From: Escherichia coli | GTDB taxonomy: Bacteria > Pseudomonadota > Gammaproteobacteria > Enterobacterales > Enterobacteriaceae | Direction: 5' to 3' (one strand) | Assembly (NCBI RefSeq): GCF_051903065.1 | Contig: NZ_CP178441.1 | DNA: 42,047 bases | Shown here: one piece after another, positions 964-41,844 of the stretch | Position numbering within the stretch: position 1 is the first letter of the stretch | How the letters are laid out: each line of letters begins with the position of its first letter | Program-made: the position numbers and the translations under genes | The notes under the pieces: generated by a model | What the model was told of the DNA's origin: nothing | The model's input: the letters and a program-made list of their open reading frames with translations, nothing else | Databases searched by the model: none

Positions 964-1224
964 ATGCAAACTAAACCCTACCCTGTCTCAATCAGGTCAG
1001 AATGTTTTTTACCCTTTGGTGCGGGATGGGATTGTCCTACGCCAGAAGAAATTCGTACTTTGATGCAGATAGCAGAGCTAACAGGAAGCAAAGCAGCCAC
1101 ACTGACCGGTCTGAAAGACAGCCGAACCGTCAGGCGCTGGGTTGGGGGGGATACACCCATTCCTTTTTCGGCCTGGGCTATTCTGGTTGAATATGCAGGA
1201 TTGGGTAAAATCTGGAAGGTGTGA
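964..1224 (+). CDS. korC: KorC-like small transcriptional repressor (86 aa)
   Basis: ATG overlaps the klcB stop (TGAATG). Size and position match RK2 KorC. Four 17-bp palindromic operators of KorC type occur in the window. Confidence 0.55.
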   Translation: MQTKPYPVSIRSECFLPFGAGWDCPTPEEIRTLMQIAELTGSKAATLTGLKDSRTVRRWVGGDTPIPFSAWAILVEYAGLGKIWKV

Positions 1225-2706: not shown

Positions 2707-2763
2707 TTGTTTGCGGTGTCATTAAGGCGTCTAGTTAAAGGTGTTGAACCGGGAAGTAAATTT

Positions 2764-3108
2764 ATGACGACTGTTAATAATAATGATCCGCATGTTGCCA
2801 AAACGGGCAATGAAAAAAAACGCCTGACTAATGAGGTATTTGCAAGAGTTACCCGAAGCCTGAATGTTGGTAAGCAAACGCTTGATATCGCTTACGGCGT
2901 ACTGGTTGAAGGAAGACCGCAGAAATATTTTGTTGAAACGCTGGATATTTCTCGCGGGGCTGTTTCTCAGGCAGTTAACAGAGTGTGGGATGCCTATAAA
3001 CAAGAAGTACCTGACGGTTTTGTGCGTATTGAAGTAGTGTTACCGGAGCGGCAGGCTTTCATTGTTAAAAAGTGGGCTGACGAGGCAAAACGTAAACAGG
3101 AAGAATAG
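2764..3108 (+). CDS. korA: KorA global repressor (ORF track start 2707 is probably an upstream extension)
   Basis: Strong similarity to recalled RP4 KorA: HTH segment GAVSQAVNRVW and C-terminal VLPERQAFIVKKWADEAKRKQEE. Confidence 0.8.
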   Translation: MTTVNNNDPHVAKTGNEKKRLTNEVFARVTRSLNVGKQTLDIAYGVLVEGRPQKYFVETLDISRGAVSQAVNRVWDAYKQEVPDGFVRIEVVLPERQAFIVKKWADEAKRKQEE

Positions 3109-6652: not shown

Positions 6653-6679
6653 TTTAGCCGCTAAAACTTAGCGGCTAAT
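6653..6679. promoter_or_regulatory. tandem KorB-type operators: TTTAGCCGCTAAA (6653..6665) and degenerate CTTAGCGGCTAAT (6667..6679)
   Basis: Two adjacent copies of the OB palindrome immediately past the traM stop. Confidence 0.55.
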
Positions 6680-21386: not shown

Positions 21387-21878
21387 ATGAAAAAGATATA
21401 TACCGCAGCGTTTTTATTAATTTTTACCCCTTTAACTTATGCCACCGGATTTCCATGTGCTGGCTGTGGAATTGTTGATAATATGATAAAAGGAAAGGCT
21501 GATGAAACACCAATAATGGTGATGCTAGATACTCCGATTGAAAAAAATGACATTACGCCGAAGGAAATAAACTTAATATCACACGACGATAAATGTCTTT
21601 ACTCTGGTGTACTTACACAGACTCTTTCGAAAAATAAAGACAGCCGTATTATTGATGTCAATAAAAAGGTTTGCGGCTCGAATACTGAAAAGGTGTCTTA
21701 CTCCGTTTTGAGCATTAGTTCCAGCGAGCAATACAGCAAAGGCACACCGCTAAAGCTGTATCATGTCGCCGTAATGACTTCGGCAGGTCCGTTGTTCAGC
21801 GCTGATGTAATGAGCGAAATGATTAAAGATATTGCAGATGCAGTAGAACAGGCTAAGGCAAAAGGACTGACTAAGTGA
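21387..21878 (+). CDS. secreted/periplasmic hypothetical protein
   Basis: N-terminal signal peptide MKKIYTAAFLLIFTPLTYA. AT-rich. RBS AAGGA. Confidence 0.55.
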   Translation: MKKIYTAAFLLIFTPLTYATGFPCAGCGIVDNMIKGKADETPIMVMLDTPIEKNDITPKEINLISHDDKCLYSGVLTQTLSKNKDSRIIDVNKKVCGSNTEKVSYSVLSISSSEQYSKGTPLKLYHVAVMTSAGPLFSADVMSEMIKDIADAVEQAKAKGLTK

Positions 21879-22090
21879 GTCATTCAGATAAAAGGTCCGA
21901 GTTTTTGTATATGTTCCGGCGTTGCAGAACGATAGATACAGTTGAACGCCTTTATGAACATAAGCGGGACATTGTTTCTTCTGAACATCTTAGCGATTTT
22001 CTGAGTGCTTATGATCATCGCAAGGCAGAAATTTATCATGGAAAAATCTGGGATAAGGTTCCTGCGTCTGCCTGGCGGAATGTGAAATAA
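21875..22090 (+). CDS. hypothetical protein (71 aa), coupled to the upstream secreted protein gene
   Basis: GTGA start/stop overlap. Followed by a strong hairpin terminator. Confidence 0.4.
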   Translation: MSHSDKRSEFLYMFRRCRTIDTVERLYEHKRDIVSSEHLSDFLSAYDHRKAEIYHGKIWDKVPASAWRNVK

Positions 22091-22120
22091 AACAGCCGGG
22101 TAAACCCCGGCTGTTGTTAA
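22091..22120. terminator. bidirectional terminator hairpin (AACAGCCGGG-TAAAC-CCCGGCTGTT) between convergent operons
   Basis: 10-bp perfect stem with T-rich and A-rich flanks. Confidence 0.65.
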
Positions 22121-22146: not shown

Positions 22147-23133
22147 TTAATCATCATGGTCCAAAGGAGCTGAGTTTTTAATAGCTTCAATTTCATCAAG
22201 CAATCTTTTATTACGCTTTATTGCATCTTCAATGCGACGAATCAGCGCCTCATCACCTTTCCAGTAATTAAATTTACCTCTTTGACTTTTATCCCAAATA
22301 TCCTCCCACCACATGCTTTCATTTACACGATAATCCTTGAGAAGCATCAGTGGATAGGCTTGTTCCTCTTCTCTGATTTGCTTATAAGCAGATCGCGGCA
22401 TAAGGTAGCCTTTGACGTTTACATCAAGTTTGACAAAACTCTTGTACAGCGCCCGAAGAGTGACAAAAAAATCAGCCAAATCAGACTCGCCACCGGCTCC
22501 AATGACTTCACTTACGTGTAGGTTTGTCCAGAACGCATCAACATACCGTGTATTTTCAAACTCACGGAGTATCAGAAGTGCTCCTATATCACTATCTTCC
22601 CTTAGCAGCCTGATGTCTGTGACTTTATTACCATCACTATCAGGTCTGAGAAGGTGCTTAACAGCAGCCCGGCCTGTGCCGTGCATTCTGACGCCTGAGT
22701 TCCATTCATACACATCCCCCTCACCGTGAATTAACCAGTCGGCGCGACAACCAAATAACTTGCTTAACCGCTGCAGCTCAGTGAAGGAAGGGAGTACGTC
22801 ACCACTGAACCAGTTGGCGACAAGGCCAAGATCTTCAATCCCCAGCTCTACGGCCACATTGGACGGCACAAGAGGTTTGTAGTTACGGAATTGGTTGGTT
22901 TTCCGCAGAACTGTATTGAGGCGGCCAGACACTTCCTGCCGGTATAGTTCTTCTCCAGAATAAACCTGCTCAGGAGGTGCTATCCATTTCAACAGAGCAT
23001 AGCGGGCCTCACCTTCGACCGAACGTTGATTTTCGTTTGCTAACTGTTCTAGGGCGAAATATGCATCGTCCGGGAAATTTCTGACCTGAAATTTTTTCAT
23101 AACGCACCATTTTGGGAGAATGTGTGGCTTCAT
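22147..23133 (-). CDS. RHH (Arc/CopG-like) plus XRE-HTH-like protein with a large unknown C-terminal domain; start may be the internal ATG at 23100
   Basis: N-terminus KKFQVRNFPDDAYFALEQLANENQRSVEGEARYAL is RHH-like. A mid segment ...LQRLSKLFGCRADWLIHGEG is HTH-like. Downstream of a KorC-operator promoter region. Confidence 0.55.
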   Translation of the reverse strand: MKPHILPKWCVMKKFQVRNFPDDAYFALEQLANENQRSVEGEARYALLKWIAPPEQVYSGEELYRQEVSGRLNTVLRKTNQFRNYKPLVPSNVAVELGIEDLGLVANWFSGDVLPSFTELQRLSKLFGCRADWLIHGEGDVYEWNSGVRMHGTGRAAVKHLLRPDSDGNKVTDIRLLREDSDIGALLILREFENTRYVDAFWTNLHVSEVIGAGGESDLADFFVTLRALYKSFVKLDVNVKGYLMPRSAYKQIREEEQAYPLMLLKDYRVNESMWWEDIWDKSQRGKFNYWKGDEALIRRIEDAIKRNKRLLDEIEAIKNSAPLDHDD

Positions 23134-23207: not shown

Positions 23208-23414
23208 TTAAAAACCAATAAGTCTGCATTCATGGCTGACCATTTGGCTCAGGTAACGTGGTATCTGCTCGACCAAGTGGATGTTCGTCTCAGCGAGTTT
23301 TTCAATCTCATCAATGGTAACGGTTGGCAGAGCATGGATGAAATCTGACAGGGAAAGATGCTCCAGTGGCCGTCTGTCATATGATGCTGTTTTGCTATAG
23401 GATATACGGGACAT
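23208..23414 (-). CDS. small hypothetical protein (68 aa), first gene downstream of the KorC operators
   Basis: AAGGAA RBS upstream of the ATG. Confidence 0.5.
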   Translation of the reverse strand: MSRISYSKTASYDRRPLEHLSLSDFIHALPTVTIDEIEKLAETNIHLVEQIPRYLSQMVSHECRLIGF

Positions 23415-23445
23415 TTCAAATTCCTTGCACGGATTTTAGGTGTCG

Positions 23446-23471
23446 GATAGGGAGGTTGCAGCCTCCCTATC
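23446..23471. repeat. perfect 10-bp inverted repeat GATAGGGAGG-N6-CCTCCCTATC
   Basis: Read directly. Lies in the divergent intergenic region next to the KorC-type operators. Confidence 0.6.
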
Positions 23472-23481
23472 ATCCTTTGTA

Positions 23482-23524
23482 TAGGACATTATGTCCTGCA
23501 CCTATGATAGGACATTTTGTCCTA
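23482..23524. promoter_or_regulatory. two KorC-type operators (TAGGACATTATGTCCTG at 23482..23498; TAGGACATTTTGTCCTA at 23508..23524) in a divergent promoter region
   Basis: Same 17-bp palindrome family as at 1255..1271 and 41307..41323. Confidence 0.6.
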
Positions 23525-23567
23525 TTTGCAAGTGATTTTCAAACCGTCTAAGGATTGGGAGTGCGCC

Positions 23568-23678
23568 GTGCTATATATGTTAATCTGCAGTGTTCTGATG
23601 CTGGCACTGGTAAATGGCAAAAGTAAAGATTTGACTAAAGGCATTGATAAGCTGCAGGATGAATTTAAAGATAAATAG
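23568..23678 (+). CDS. possible small hydrophobic peptide (about 36 aa, GTG start)
   Basis: Short ORF with GGGA RBS and a hydrophobic N-terminus (LICSVLMLALV). Below the ORF-track size cutoff. Confidence 0.3.
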   Translation: MLYMLICSVLMLALVNGKSKDLTKGIDKLQDEFKDK

Positions 23679-23692
23679 AAGGAAGAGAATTA

Positions 23693-23890
23693 ATGGAAAT
23701 TTTCTTGAAGCCGCTGGGTATGGGGGCAGTGGCTGTATTTATCGGGATTGTTTTGCTCTGGCTTATTCCTGAATATAAAAAGACGCCCAGGAAAGCGGCT
23801 GTAGCTGTAATTAATATCGGAGTAGCTCTCATGCTCGCGGTGGCAGTAGGAATGATTGCAGTGATGATGATGACGCCAGCAGGAACCTGA
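23693..23890 (+). CDS. small membrane protein (65 aa, two predicted TM helices)
   Basis: AGGAAG RBS. Almost entirely hydrophobic sequence. Confidence 0.5.
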   Translation: MEIFLKPLGMGAVAVFIGIVLLWLIPEYKKTPRKAAVAVINIGVALMLAVAVGMIAVMMMTPAGT

Positions 23891-23898
23891 GAAAACTC

Positions 23899-23911
23899 TT
23901 TAGCGGCTAAA
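23899..23911. promoter_or_regulatory. KorB-type operator TTTAGCGGCTAAA
   Basis: Perfect OB consensus 9 nt after the 23693..23890 stop. Confidence 0.55.
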
Positions 23912-25175: not shown

Positions 25176-25541
25176 ATGAATTTTATTGCTTTATGGCCTT
25201 TATTGCTGGCCCAAGTGACAGTGATGTCACTGACAGTGATTTTTCTTGCTGCTGACAGGCGTTTTTTTTCATGGGACTGTTTTGTTGTTTGCACTCTGTC
25301 CATGATGATGGCAGAAGGTATTGTTATTATGAAATATGAACTGTGGCATATCCCTCCTGCCCTGCTGGGTCTGGCAGGAGGGTTGTCATGGTCGCTGCTG
25401 CTACTCCATACAGGATATTTCTCAGGCATATCAGAAGGAGCGCATAAGCGTTTGTGGCTCGCTGTCGCCGCAGTGTTTTCTGGTGCGGGAATGATTATAT
25501 TCTACTGGTTGCTCCATGCATCAGAAAACATAATTAAATAA
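25176..25541 (+). CDS. small integral membrane protein (4 predicted TM helices)
   Basis: GGAG RBS. Hydrophobic throughout. Confidence 0.5.
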   Translation: MNFIALWPLLLAQVTVMSLTVIFLAADRRFFSWDCFVVCTLSMMMAEGIVIMKYELWHIPPALLGLAGGLSWSLLLLHTGYFSGISEGAHKRLWLAVAAVFSGAGMIIFYWLLHASENIIK

Positions 25542-40800: not shown

Positions 40801-41298
40801 ACTCGCTTCGCGAGCTTAGGCCGCTTCGCTCTGCCAGAGATAAATCTCTGGCCAACCACACCAACCAACGTGCAAAACATTCAATTCTTAAAAATTCCTC
40901 ACCAAAACAGCTTGATAAGTACTCGCTTGAATTACCAAGCACACTTCGAAATTCCGTATTCGCTATAAACTCGAAAAGTTTTACACCAAGGAAAAGCCGT
41001 TTAAGGGGTTCCAAGCCGGAAACGGGGTTTGAGGGCCAACCGTACGAAAACGTACGGTAAGGGGGCCGCTTGGCATTCGGAAAATAAACCACGTTAAGAC
41101 TATTTTTTAGCCAAAAGACTTTTAGAAATCGCCAGAATGGCGGGACAACAGCAGTTTTGGTGTCCGAAATCGTACAATTTTTACGTTCAGTAAGTTAGCT
41201 GGCCTGGATGTAACCATCCGTTCAACTCAATTCTCTTGGCGTGGGAAAATTTCCGAATTCCAAGCTGATCCCTGCTACGGCTCCATCAATAATAATGC

Positions 41299-41327
41299 TT
41301 GAACAATAGGACAAAATGTCCTATTAT
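41299..41327 (+). promoter_or_regulatory. klcA promoter TTGAAC-17-TATTAT overlapped by KorC-type operator TAGGACAAAATGTCCTA (41307..41323)
   Basis: Hexamers plus a perfect-arm 17-bp palindrome. Same geometry as the promoter at 1246..1275. Confidence 0.6.
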
Positions 41328-41376
41328 GTGTTTGAAGGCCGAGTATATCACTCAGGTCAAATACCGGAGAACTCCG

Positions 41377-41844
41377 ATGAATAATGAAGTTATCGTTACT
41401 GCTCGTAAACTTACAGATTATGAAGAACGCCTGATGTTTATGCCGAAATTCTTCGGCCAATATTGGCTTTTTGTGGAAAACCACACTTATAACTGGATGC
41501 GTAAATTAAGTCCTGAAAATAAAAGCCAATATTTAAGTAGTGCGCTGGATAAAATTGAAGCCCATTACGATGGTGGTGAGTGGGATTTTTATGAACTTTC
41601 AAATGGTGGTTATTTTATGGCACCAAACAGCCGTGAACATTACCGTATTTCTGTCCAGGGTAATTACTTTGACGGTTTGTTAAGCGCAGAAGCTGCAGGT
41701 ATGGTGGCAACCAGTTTTGTGCTGGCCCAGCTTGCTAATTCTAATCTGCCATTTTCAGAAAAATGCTGTGCTTATTATCATCAGCTGTTTGATTACGCCA
41801 GCGGGCATCAAGAATATGCGCAGTTCCGTGCTGCCATCGATTAA
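41377..41844 (+). CDS. klcA: KlcA (ArdB/KlcA-family antirestriction protein); ORF track start 41299 is an extension through the promoter
   Basis: Similarity to recalled RK2 KlcA (...YELSNGGYFMAP..., AEAAGMVATSFVLAQLA). GGAGA RBS before the ATG at 41377. Confidence 0.8.
   Translation: MNNEVIVTARKLTDYEERLMFMPKFFGQYWLFVENHTYNWMRKLSPENKSQYLSSALDKIEAHYDGGEWDFYELSNGGYFMAPNSREHYRISVQGNYFDGLLSAEAAGMVATSFVLAQLANSNLPFSEKCCAYYHQLFDYASGHQEYAQFRAAID

Follow-up and report, generated by a model that had tools for sequence, protein, structure and literature searches.

A conserved inverted repeat in the leader of a small plasmid ORF as a possible stem-loop of a cis-antisense RNA

The 5′ leader of a small minus-strand ORF (68 aa) on an Escherichia coli plasmid carries, downstream of a promoter with a KorC-type operator, a perfect 10-bp inverted repeat that is present in all the lineages of the plasmid group, including those with no more than 70–90% identity in the intergenic DNA. 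The repeat goes with this ORF rather than with the KorC promoter or the RHH/HTH regulator encoded further downstream. The substitutions in its stem and the predicted folds indicate that a selected structure on the plus strand, antisense to the ORF, fits better than one on the mRNA strand. With moderate confidence, the repeat can be read as the second stem-loop (SL2) of a small RNA, encoded in cis and antisense to the 68-aa ORF, that would be about 65 nt long and mask the SD sequence and the AUG of this ORF. From the observations set out below we infer the production of this candidate RNA, its 3′ end, and its action. The window, i.e., the whole stretch of DNA that was analyzed, has 42,047 nucleotides (contig NZ_CP178441.1); the features discussed are collected in Table 1.

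Table 1. Features of the window that are relevant to the inverted repeat.
Feature	Positions	Strand	Sequence or remarks
KorC-size ORF (86 aa)	964–1224		assigned by size and by the position of korC
KleE	1322–1645
KorA	2707–3108
328-aa RHH + HTH protein	22147–23133	−	downstream of the 68-aa ORF; FitA-like RHH, HTH_3
68-aa ORF	23208–23414	−	annotated as hypothetical protein; C-terminus HECRLIGF; repeat in its leader
−35-like CTGTCA	23374–23379	+	18 nt upstream of the −10-like hexamer; weak match (4/6)
−10-like hexamer TAGGAT	23398–23403	+	inside codons 4–6 of the 68-aa ORF; predicted start about 23410
Proposed stem-loop 1 (SL1)	23410–23444	+	starts at the start-codon complement GACAU; anti-SD UUCCUU
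SD of the 68-aa ORF	23426–23421	−	AAGGAA
Proposed stem-loop 2 (SL2)	23446–23471	+	10 Watson–Crick pairs, U·G closing pair, UGCA tetraloop
Tail after SL2	23472–23482	+	AUCCUUUGUAU; moderately U-rich; terminator-like in the plus-strand scan
KorC-type operator OC2	23482–23498		TAGGACATTATGTCCTG; within the 26-bp tandem duplication between promoter and hairpin
Minus-strand promoter	23504–23531	−	−35 TTGCAA (23531–23526), OC1 in spacer, −10 TATCAT (23509–23504)
KorC-type operator OC1	23508–23524		TAGGACATTTTGTCCTA; in the spacer of the minus-strand promoter
KorB-type operator, perfect	23899–23911		TTTAGCGGCTAAA; about 430 bp from the repeat
KlcA	41378–41844

The window resembles pCFSA664-2 and belongs to the IncP/P-1 plasmids of the enterobacterial clade II. 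The 1.2 kb between 22900 and 24100 are 99.9–100% identical to conjugative plasmids of about 41–43 kb, including NZ_CP033354 (pCFSA664-2), which has been grouped with pDS1, pMCR_1511, and pHS102707 (PMC9499019). The repeat is composed of GATAGGGAGG (23446–23455), the centre TTGCAG (23456–23461), and CCTCCCTATC (23462–23471), which confirms the perfect 10-bp palindrome with a 6-nt centre noticed in the preliminary description. On the plus strand it forms 11 pairs and a 4-nt loop when the loop-closing T·G is counted, and its complement in the mRNA leader is a hairpin with a 10-bp stem and a 6-nt loop. Neither a pattern search for the decamer nor a covariance-model search revealed a second copy in the 42-kb window. 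In windows resampled with a first-order Markov model from the base transitions of the window itself, perfect inverted repeats (arm of at least 10, loop of 3–8) occur 0.32 times per 42 kb and 24% of the resampled windows contain at least one, so that the repeat by itself is only mildly unusual and might have arisen by chance. It is judged to be real because it is conserved across lineages and is also found upstream of distant homologues of the ORF. Two other perfect 10-bp inverted repeats were noticed in the window. One of them, CCCTCCTGCC-N11-GGCAGGAGGG (25352–25382, 11-nt loop), sits within a 121-aa plus-strand ORF (25176–25541) and has a G-rich and a C-rich arm, a composition resembling that of the repeat at 23446–23471. 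The other, AACAGCCGGG-TAAAC-CCCGGCTGTT (22091–22115), lies directly after an hha-like gene (21875–22090) and is probably the terminator of this gene, facing the end of the convergent 328-aa gene.

The location of the repeat beside KorC operators and outside the three Kor operator classes, both put forward in the preliminary description, held true on closer analysis: two KorC-type palindromes, OC1 and OC2, lie next to it, and GATAGGGAGG-N6-CCTCCCTATC shares no core with the OA, OB, or OC consensus. These consensus sequences are GTTTAGCTAAAC for OA, TTTAGCSGCTAAA for OB, and TAGGGCATAATGCCCTA for OC. The KorC-type site TAGGACA-N3-TGTCCTA occurs four times in the window, against 0.8 copies expected. 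Three promoters, those of kleE (about 1247–1275) and klcA (about 41290–41328) and the minus-strand promoter upstream of the 68-aa ORF, have one and the same layout, in which a −35 box (TTGCAA or TTGAAC) is followed by the operator in the spacer and by a −10 box beginning on the last TA of the operator. The 26-bp tandem duplication that carries OC2 is found in the window lineage only. Each duplicated unit consists of a KorC-type operator and a −10-like hexamer (...AGGACAAAATGTCCTATCATAGGTG in the OC1 unit and ...AGGACATAATGTCCTATACAAAGGATG in the OC2 unit), and variability in the region is highest in the spacers flanking OC2. In the lineages with a single operator (L006, L007, L038, L040, and L041) the hairpin comes straight after the −10 box. 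The perfect KorB-type site lies between a 65-aa membrane ORF (23693–23890) and a 315-aa minus-strand ORF; another KorB-type operator, TTTAGCTGCTAAA, is found at 1232–1244, directly upstream of the −35 box of the kleE promoter, and a pair of them at 6654–6678. Like the IncP-1 Kor operators, the repeat is a palindrome in a Kor-regulated promoter region, near two OC-type sites and an OB site. Unlike them, it is unrelated in sequence, it does not recur at several promoters of the plasmid as the sites of a regulon do (one copy in 42 kb), and it is also found outside IncP backbones together with the ORF. On the plus strand, a 36-aa ORF (23569–23678) starting GTGCTATATATG... corresponds to the beginning of a longer gene (197 aa) that is annotated in relatives (1887–2480 in L004 and 1899–2492 in L008), and the window apparently lacks about 500 bp found at this gene in both of them. 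The interval from OC1 to the 36-aa ORF yielded no convincing promoter on the plus strand.

The hairpin lies 29–36 nt before the ATG in every homologue that has a recognizable one, and this distance is maintained behind different operators, promoters, and backbones. Hairpin and ORF occur together in pDS1, a Serratia plasmid, Salmonella plasmids typed as IncFII, and metagenome contigs; in the Salmonella plasmids the hairpin is kept even though the identity of the ORF protein falls to 34%. No recognizable hairpin is present in two distant homologues, L022 and L025. In L019, the nearest promoter-like site lies about 270 nt upstream of the hairpin, before another gene. The gene downstream of the 68-aa ORF differs or is absent among plasmids, and the RHH/HTH gene is absent in pDS1. 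Since the downstream gene and the promoter vary and the hairpin stays with the ORF, the element belongs to the small ORF; the 328-aa RHH/HTH gene is a variable cargo of the operon, unlinked to the hairpin in other plasmids. Among 15 close relatives, the segment from hairpin to ATG is variable at 5 of 62 positions, and the two spacers just upstream of the hairpin at 17 of 21. Database scans for more variants gave two loci in the genome scan and none in the viral scan, and further scans yielded no new hairpin variants. Other readings of the region were considered and discarded. The relatives do not conserve the CsrA-like motif ACAAAGGAUGA that immediately precedes the hairpin. A recombinase core site (arms plus a 6-bp centre), considered given the resolvase/integrase genes near the repeat in some plasmids, was rejected since the repeat stays linked to the start of the ORF irrespective of the neighboring genes. 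The overlapping ORFs at 23249–23473 (minus strand) and 23366–23551 (plus strand) were taken as spurious, their start context not being conserved across lineages.

Comparison of the lineages shows substitutions in both partners at six of the ten stem pairs. Read on the minus strand, the 5′ and 3′ arms are GAUAGGGAGG and CCUCCCUAUC in the window, AGUGGUGAGG and CCUCACCACU in pDS1, AUGCGGUGAGG and CCUCACCGCAU in the Salmonella plasmids, ACGGAGAGG and CCUCUCCGU in L014, and GGCGGUAAGG and CCUUACCGCC in L019. The covariation score of the stem was reached in none of 500 shuffles, although the lineages are related, and the shuffle and Wilcoxon statistics thus overstate the significance. The KorC-type sites also change symmetrically (TAGGACA/TGTCCTA in the window, TAGGTCT/AGACCTA in pDS1 and L014); therefore, the covariation of a palindrome alone cannot separate a hairpin from the operator of a dimer. 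The repeat might accordingly be a DNA operator, bound by a dimer at +1 to +26 of the minus-strand promoter and repressing it in the manner of lac O1; candidates for the binding protein are the product of the 68-aa ORF, some other regulator of the plasmid, and a factor of the host. In agreement with such a role, the repeat comes directly after the −10 box in several lineages, its conserved inner half-sites (GAGG-N6-CCTC) are one helical turn apart, its centre is often palindromic itself (C-TGCA-A, C-GGCC-A), symmetric changes are seen in true operators too, as in the KorC-type sites, and changes in a single arm would be strand-neutral. We nevertheless consider an operator improbable. The only constant partner of the repeat is the 68-aa protein, which is acidic or neutral in eight of nine representatives of the family and matches no DNA-binding family or fold, and the likeness of the palindromes does not follow that of the proteins: the pDS1-type and Salmonella-type palindromes have one pair different, while their proteins share only about one third of the residues. 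A host factor could not account for the covariation at the outer stem positions, the site in L019 is far from the nearest promoter-like site, and there is a single site in the plasmid. An operator would also leave unexplained the conserved leader, the U·G pairs of SL1, and the antisense −10-like element. The same evidence speaks against the binding site for an accessory regulator suggested in the preliminary description, as the repeat is unique in the plasmid and travels with the 68-aa ORF instead of the RHH/HTH gene, the 68-aa products are mostly acidic, and the outer stem covaries without a common partner protein.

The two strands differ in how well the stem is kept. On the mRNA (minus) strand, 95% of the stem cells pair, without any G·U, and seven of the eight mismatches are A·C. 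On the plus strand, 99.4% of the stem cells pair, with seven G·U where the mRNA strand has A·C. In 14 of 16 lineages, the C/A that closes the loop on the mRNA strand becomes U·G. Plus-strand hairpin energies stay between −19 and −22 kcal/mol in 15 of the 16 lineages, while those of the mRNA-strand hairpin range from −7.4 to −21.7 kcal/mol. For the whole element, which begins at the complement of the start codon and extends slightly beyond the hairpin, the mean folding energy over the 16 lineages is −29.5 ± 1.8 kcal/mol on the plus strand versus −23.4 ± 4.9 kcal/mol on the mRNA strand, and the plus strand is the more stable in 15 of them. A plus-strand consensus of two stem-loops, obtained with RNAalifold, fits all 16 lineages and both protein subfamilies, and the base pairs of SL1 are mostly U·G on the plus strand and cannot form on the mRNA strand. 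Because of the G·U versus A·C asymmetry, the folding energies, and the −10-like element on the opposite strand, the plus strand is favored as the one carrying the selected structure. The G·U asymmetry rests on about six independent substitutions and could partly reflect strand-biased mutation or a general advantage of the G+U-rich strand. The alternative suggestion of the preliminary description, an RNA hairpin in the leader of the minus-strand operon, is thus retained in part: the hairpin does lie in the transcribed leader, and the selected structure is indicated on the plus strand instead.

A role of the hairpin on the mRNA itself has to be weighed against these data. Stem-loops at the 5′ end stabilize some E. 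coli mRNAs, such as that of ompA, and a hairpin located close to the beginning of the leader, or right there, could protect the transcript from 5′-end-dependent decay and, together with a small SD hairpin and a GACA/UGUC helix over the start codon, might tune translation. In several lineages, promoter prediction places a −10-like hexamer ending 6–9 nt before the hairpin (TATCAT in L006, TACTAT in pDS1, TATTAT in L012, TAATAT in L014, and TACACT in L010), so that the hairpin would start at about +1, as in the ompA-type stem-loops. The constant distance between hairpin and ATG and the stability of the mRNA-strand hairpin in the window (−17.8 kcal/mol, z −4.3) are also in line with this function, and for both subfamilies RNAalifold on the mRNA strand gives the hairpin together with two further helices, GACA/UGUC and one at the SD. 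The extra helices, however, never vary and thus lack covariation support, and the energy of the mRNA-strand hairpin is the variable one. Seven of the eight stem mismatches being A·C, and none G·U, is the opposite of what selection on the mRNA strand predicts; the substitutions therefore favor the other strand, unlike in the ompA-type stem-loops. In the window lineage, moreover, the 26-nt OC2 segment precedes the hairpin, which lies about 26 nt from the predicted 5′ end and is not 5′-terminal there. Stabilization of the mRNA is thus an unlikely main function, even if it can coexist with an antisense role. A role as single-stranded DNA was set aside: the transferred strand is presumably the minus strand, by analogy with RP4, and this is the strand with the A·C mismatches.

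The candidate antisense RNA comprises two predicted stem-loops, of which SL1 has the base helix GACAUUU/AGGUGUC, with two U·G pairs. The plus-strand fold that supports SL1 has an energy of −30.5 kcal/mol (z −5.6), and with the covariance model R1 the plus strand reaches 82 bits. The sequence GACA(C) just after the hairpin (23440–23444) complements AUGUC at the start codon (23414–23410), and both are near-invariant in the homologue loci; on the plus strand this pairing makes the base of SL1, and on the mRNA it would sequester the AUG. The −10-like hexamer of the plus strand holds a fixed position in 15 of 16 loci and lies 2 nt further upstream in the remaining one (L022); its variants are TATGAT (8 loci), TAGGAT (2), TACGAT (2), TAAACT (2), TAATAT (1), and TATAAT (1). 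Codon 4 ends in A throughout, whichever amino acid it encodes (ATA, ACA, CTA, TTA, GTA, and TCA; GCA in L025), and this A is kept even by means of rare codons (ATA, CTA). CTG or TTG is found at the 18-nt spacing from the hexamer in most lineages. The candidate promoter matches 8 of 12 consensus positions, below the threshold of the scan, and three of the −10 matches are forced by the Ser-Tyr codons. A plus-strand promoter that would use the hairpin loop (TTGCNG) as −35 was rejected, the spacing to the downstream −10-like hexamers being inconsistent (13–18 nt).

The SL2 stem is rich in G+C, with six G-C among the 11 plus-strand pairs and a predicted energy of about −19.8 kcal/mol. Together with the tail ATCCTTTGTA, this led the plus-strand scan to flag the repeat as terminator-like, and the stable form indeed lies on the plus strand. 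The repeat could then be an intrinsic terminator or insulator only, shielding the divergent promoter region controlled by KorC from stray plus-strand transcription, without any functional RNA. The tails, however, are poor in U in most lineages: that of the window, AUCCUUUG, has four U in 8 nt, the 16 lineages have on average 2.7 U in these 8 nt, and no conserved U-tract was found 3′ of the stem across lineages (the mRNA-strand tail, CGACACCU, has no U). For this reason SL2 is not a canonical intrinsic terminator, and a classical terminator was ruled out on either strand. Besides, no plus-strand gene ends upstream, hha having its own terminator-like inverted repeat (22091–22115), and the conserved 35 nt upstream (SL1) and the fixed −10-like element would be left unexplained. 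A function restricted to termination or insulation is thus very improbable.

In the antisense reading, which is based on sequence comparison and folding models, transcription would be directed by a promoter within the first codons of the 68-aa ORF, with TAGGAT as its −10 element. The RNA would begin at about 23410, at the complement of the start codon, pass through the anti-SD in SL1, and end in or just after SL2, so that its 3′ end would abut the start site of the minus-strand mRNA. Given the predicted start, the RNA (23410 to about 23480) covers both the AUG (23414–23412) and the SD sequence, and it would pair with them because it is fully complementary to the mRNA leader. The pairing would block translation or trigger cleavage. 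First contact may take place between loops, which is plausible because the mRNA carries complementary hairpins. SL2 would represent the stable 3′ domain of the antisense RNA and may also keep antisense transcription out of the KorC-controlled promoter.

Several well-known systems offer points of comparison. FinP is a plasmid antisense RNA of about 65–80 nt with two stem-loops, complementary to the traJ leader and its ribosome-binding site, and mirror-image stem-loops on the mRNA allow loop–loop pairing. The candidate RNA likewise has a predicted fold of two stem-loops and is complementary to the leader of one gene. Unlike FinP, it shows neither sequence nor Rfam similarity, its target is a 68-aa ORF without characterization and not a transfer activator, no FinO-like partner was identified, and its 3′ tail is not a U-tract. 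In the SymR/symE pair, the promoter of the antisense RNA lies within the first few codons of symE, and SymR overlaps both the start codon and the SD sequence. The predicted arrangement of the candidate is similar to that of SymR/symE and Sok/hok, with the antisense promoter within the first codons and the RNA over start codon and SD. The 68-aa protein differs from the proteins of these systems in being soluble and mostly acidic, without a membrane helix or any hint of toxicity, and in having no PADLOC or family match. In Rfam, the best match over the repeat reaches 9.4 bits, against a gathering score of 382, with nothing significant at E ≤ 10, and no description of the element was found in the literature.

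The 68-aa ORF is carried by at least 135 PLSDB plasmids, and its homologues are few (12 clusters in a search of 1.8 billion representative proteins). The family is recognized by its C-terminus, HECRxIGF. The N-terminus is variable and modeled at low confidence, apart from Ser5/Tyr6: Tyr6 is invariant across the members and Ser5 is replaced in four distant ones. All the members start with Met-Ser except P0016 (Met-Ala). Searches in Pfam, NCBIfam, PHROGs, and PADLOC gave no usable family match, and an OST-HTH match (E = 0.04) was discarded, as it lies below the score cut-off of that family. The AlphaFold2 model of the 68-aa protein, of low confidence (pLDDT 68), has three helices and no fold match in the PDB.

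More tentatively, the data may point to a previously undescribed family of cis-antisense RNAs with two stem-loops, each forming a portable cassette with a conserved protein of 65–70 aa whose last residues are HECRxIGF. Spanning only about 300 bp, the cassette is carried by IncP/P-1 clade II plasmids (including carriers of mcr-1 and KPC), IncFII-typed Salmonella plasmids, and other enterobacterial elements. The pair of antisense RNA and ORF could constitute a post-transcriptional switch or a type-I-like addiction/establishment module under the control of KorC. The global control of IncP-1 plasmids, exerted by KorA, KorB, KorC, and TrbA, is the textbook example of a purely protein-based one. If the proposed reading is correct, a layer of RNA regulation would be added to the Kor network, nested in a KorC-controlled promoter region, and a first handle would be gained on a conserved small ORF without assigned function that is carried by mcr-1 and other resistance plasmids. 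If expressed, the candidate RNA would join the well-known plasmid cis-antisense regulators as a new member; if it is not made, the finding shrinks to an ordinary conserved leader hairpin.

Some observations concern the surroundings of the cassette in other replicons. In L003 (1–1469) and L005 (2640–3956), ISApl1 and mcr-1 are inserted within 1–1.5 kb of it; in L003 ISApl1 truncates the gene downstream of the 68-aa ORF, and in L005 mcr-1 lies on the divergent side. Insertions thus recur in this accessory region. A homologue of the ORF together with a hairpin, GCGGTGAGG-CTGCAA-CCTCACCGC, was also found in L028, a 7.4-kb contig deposited as Capnocytophaga gingivalis ATCC 33624 (NZ_ACLQ01000015.1); this host is unexpected for a cassette that is otherwise enterobacterial, and the contig may be a plasmid or a contaminant. 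In the IncFII-typed Salmonella plasmids L010 and L011 (2400–2435 and 2735–2760), other inverted repeats of 9–10 bp flank the cassette, CAGTGTAAAT-N7-ATTTACACTG upstream and AGTGTATTT-N7-AAATACACT downstream, which possibly represent a different operator. Downstream of the cassette, at a distance of about 250 bp, these two plasmids carry dqlB, which encodes a type I toxin of the DinQ-like kind.
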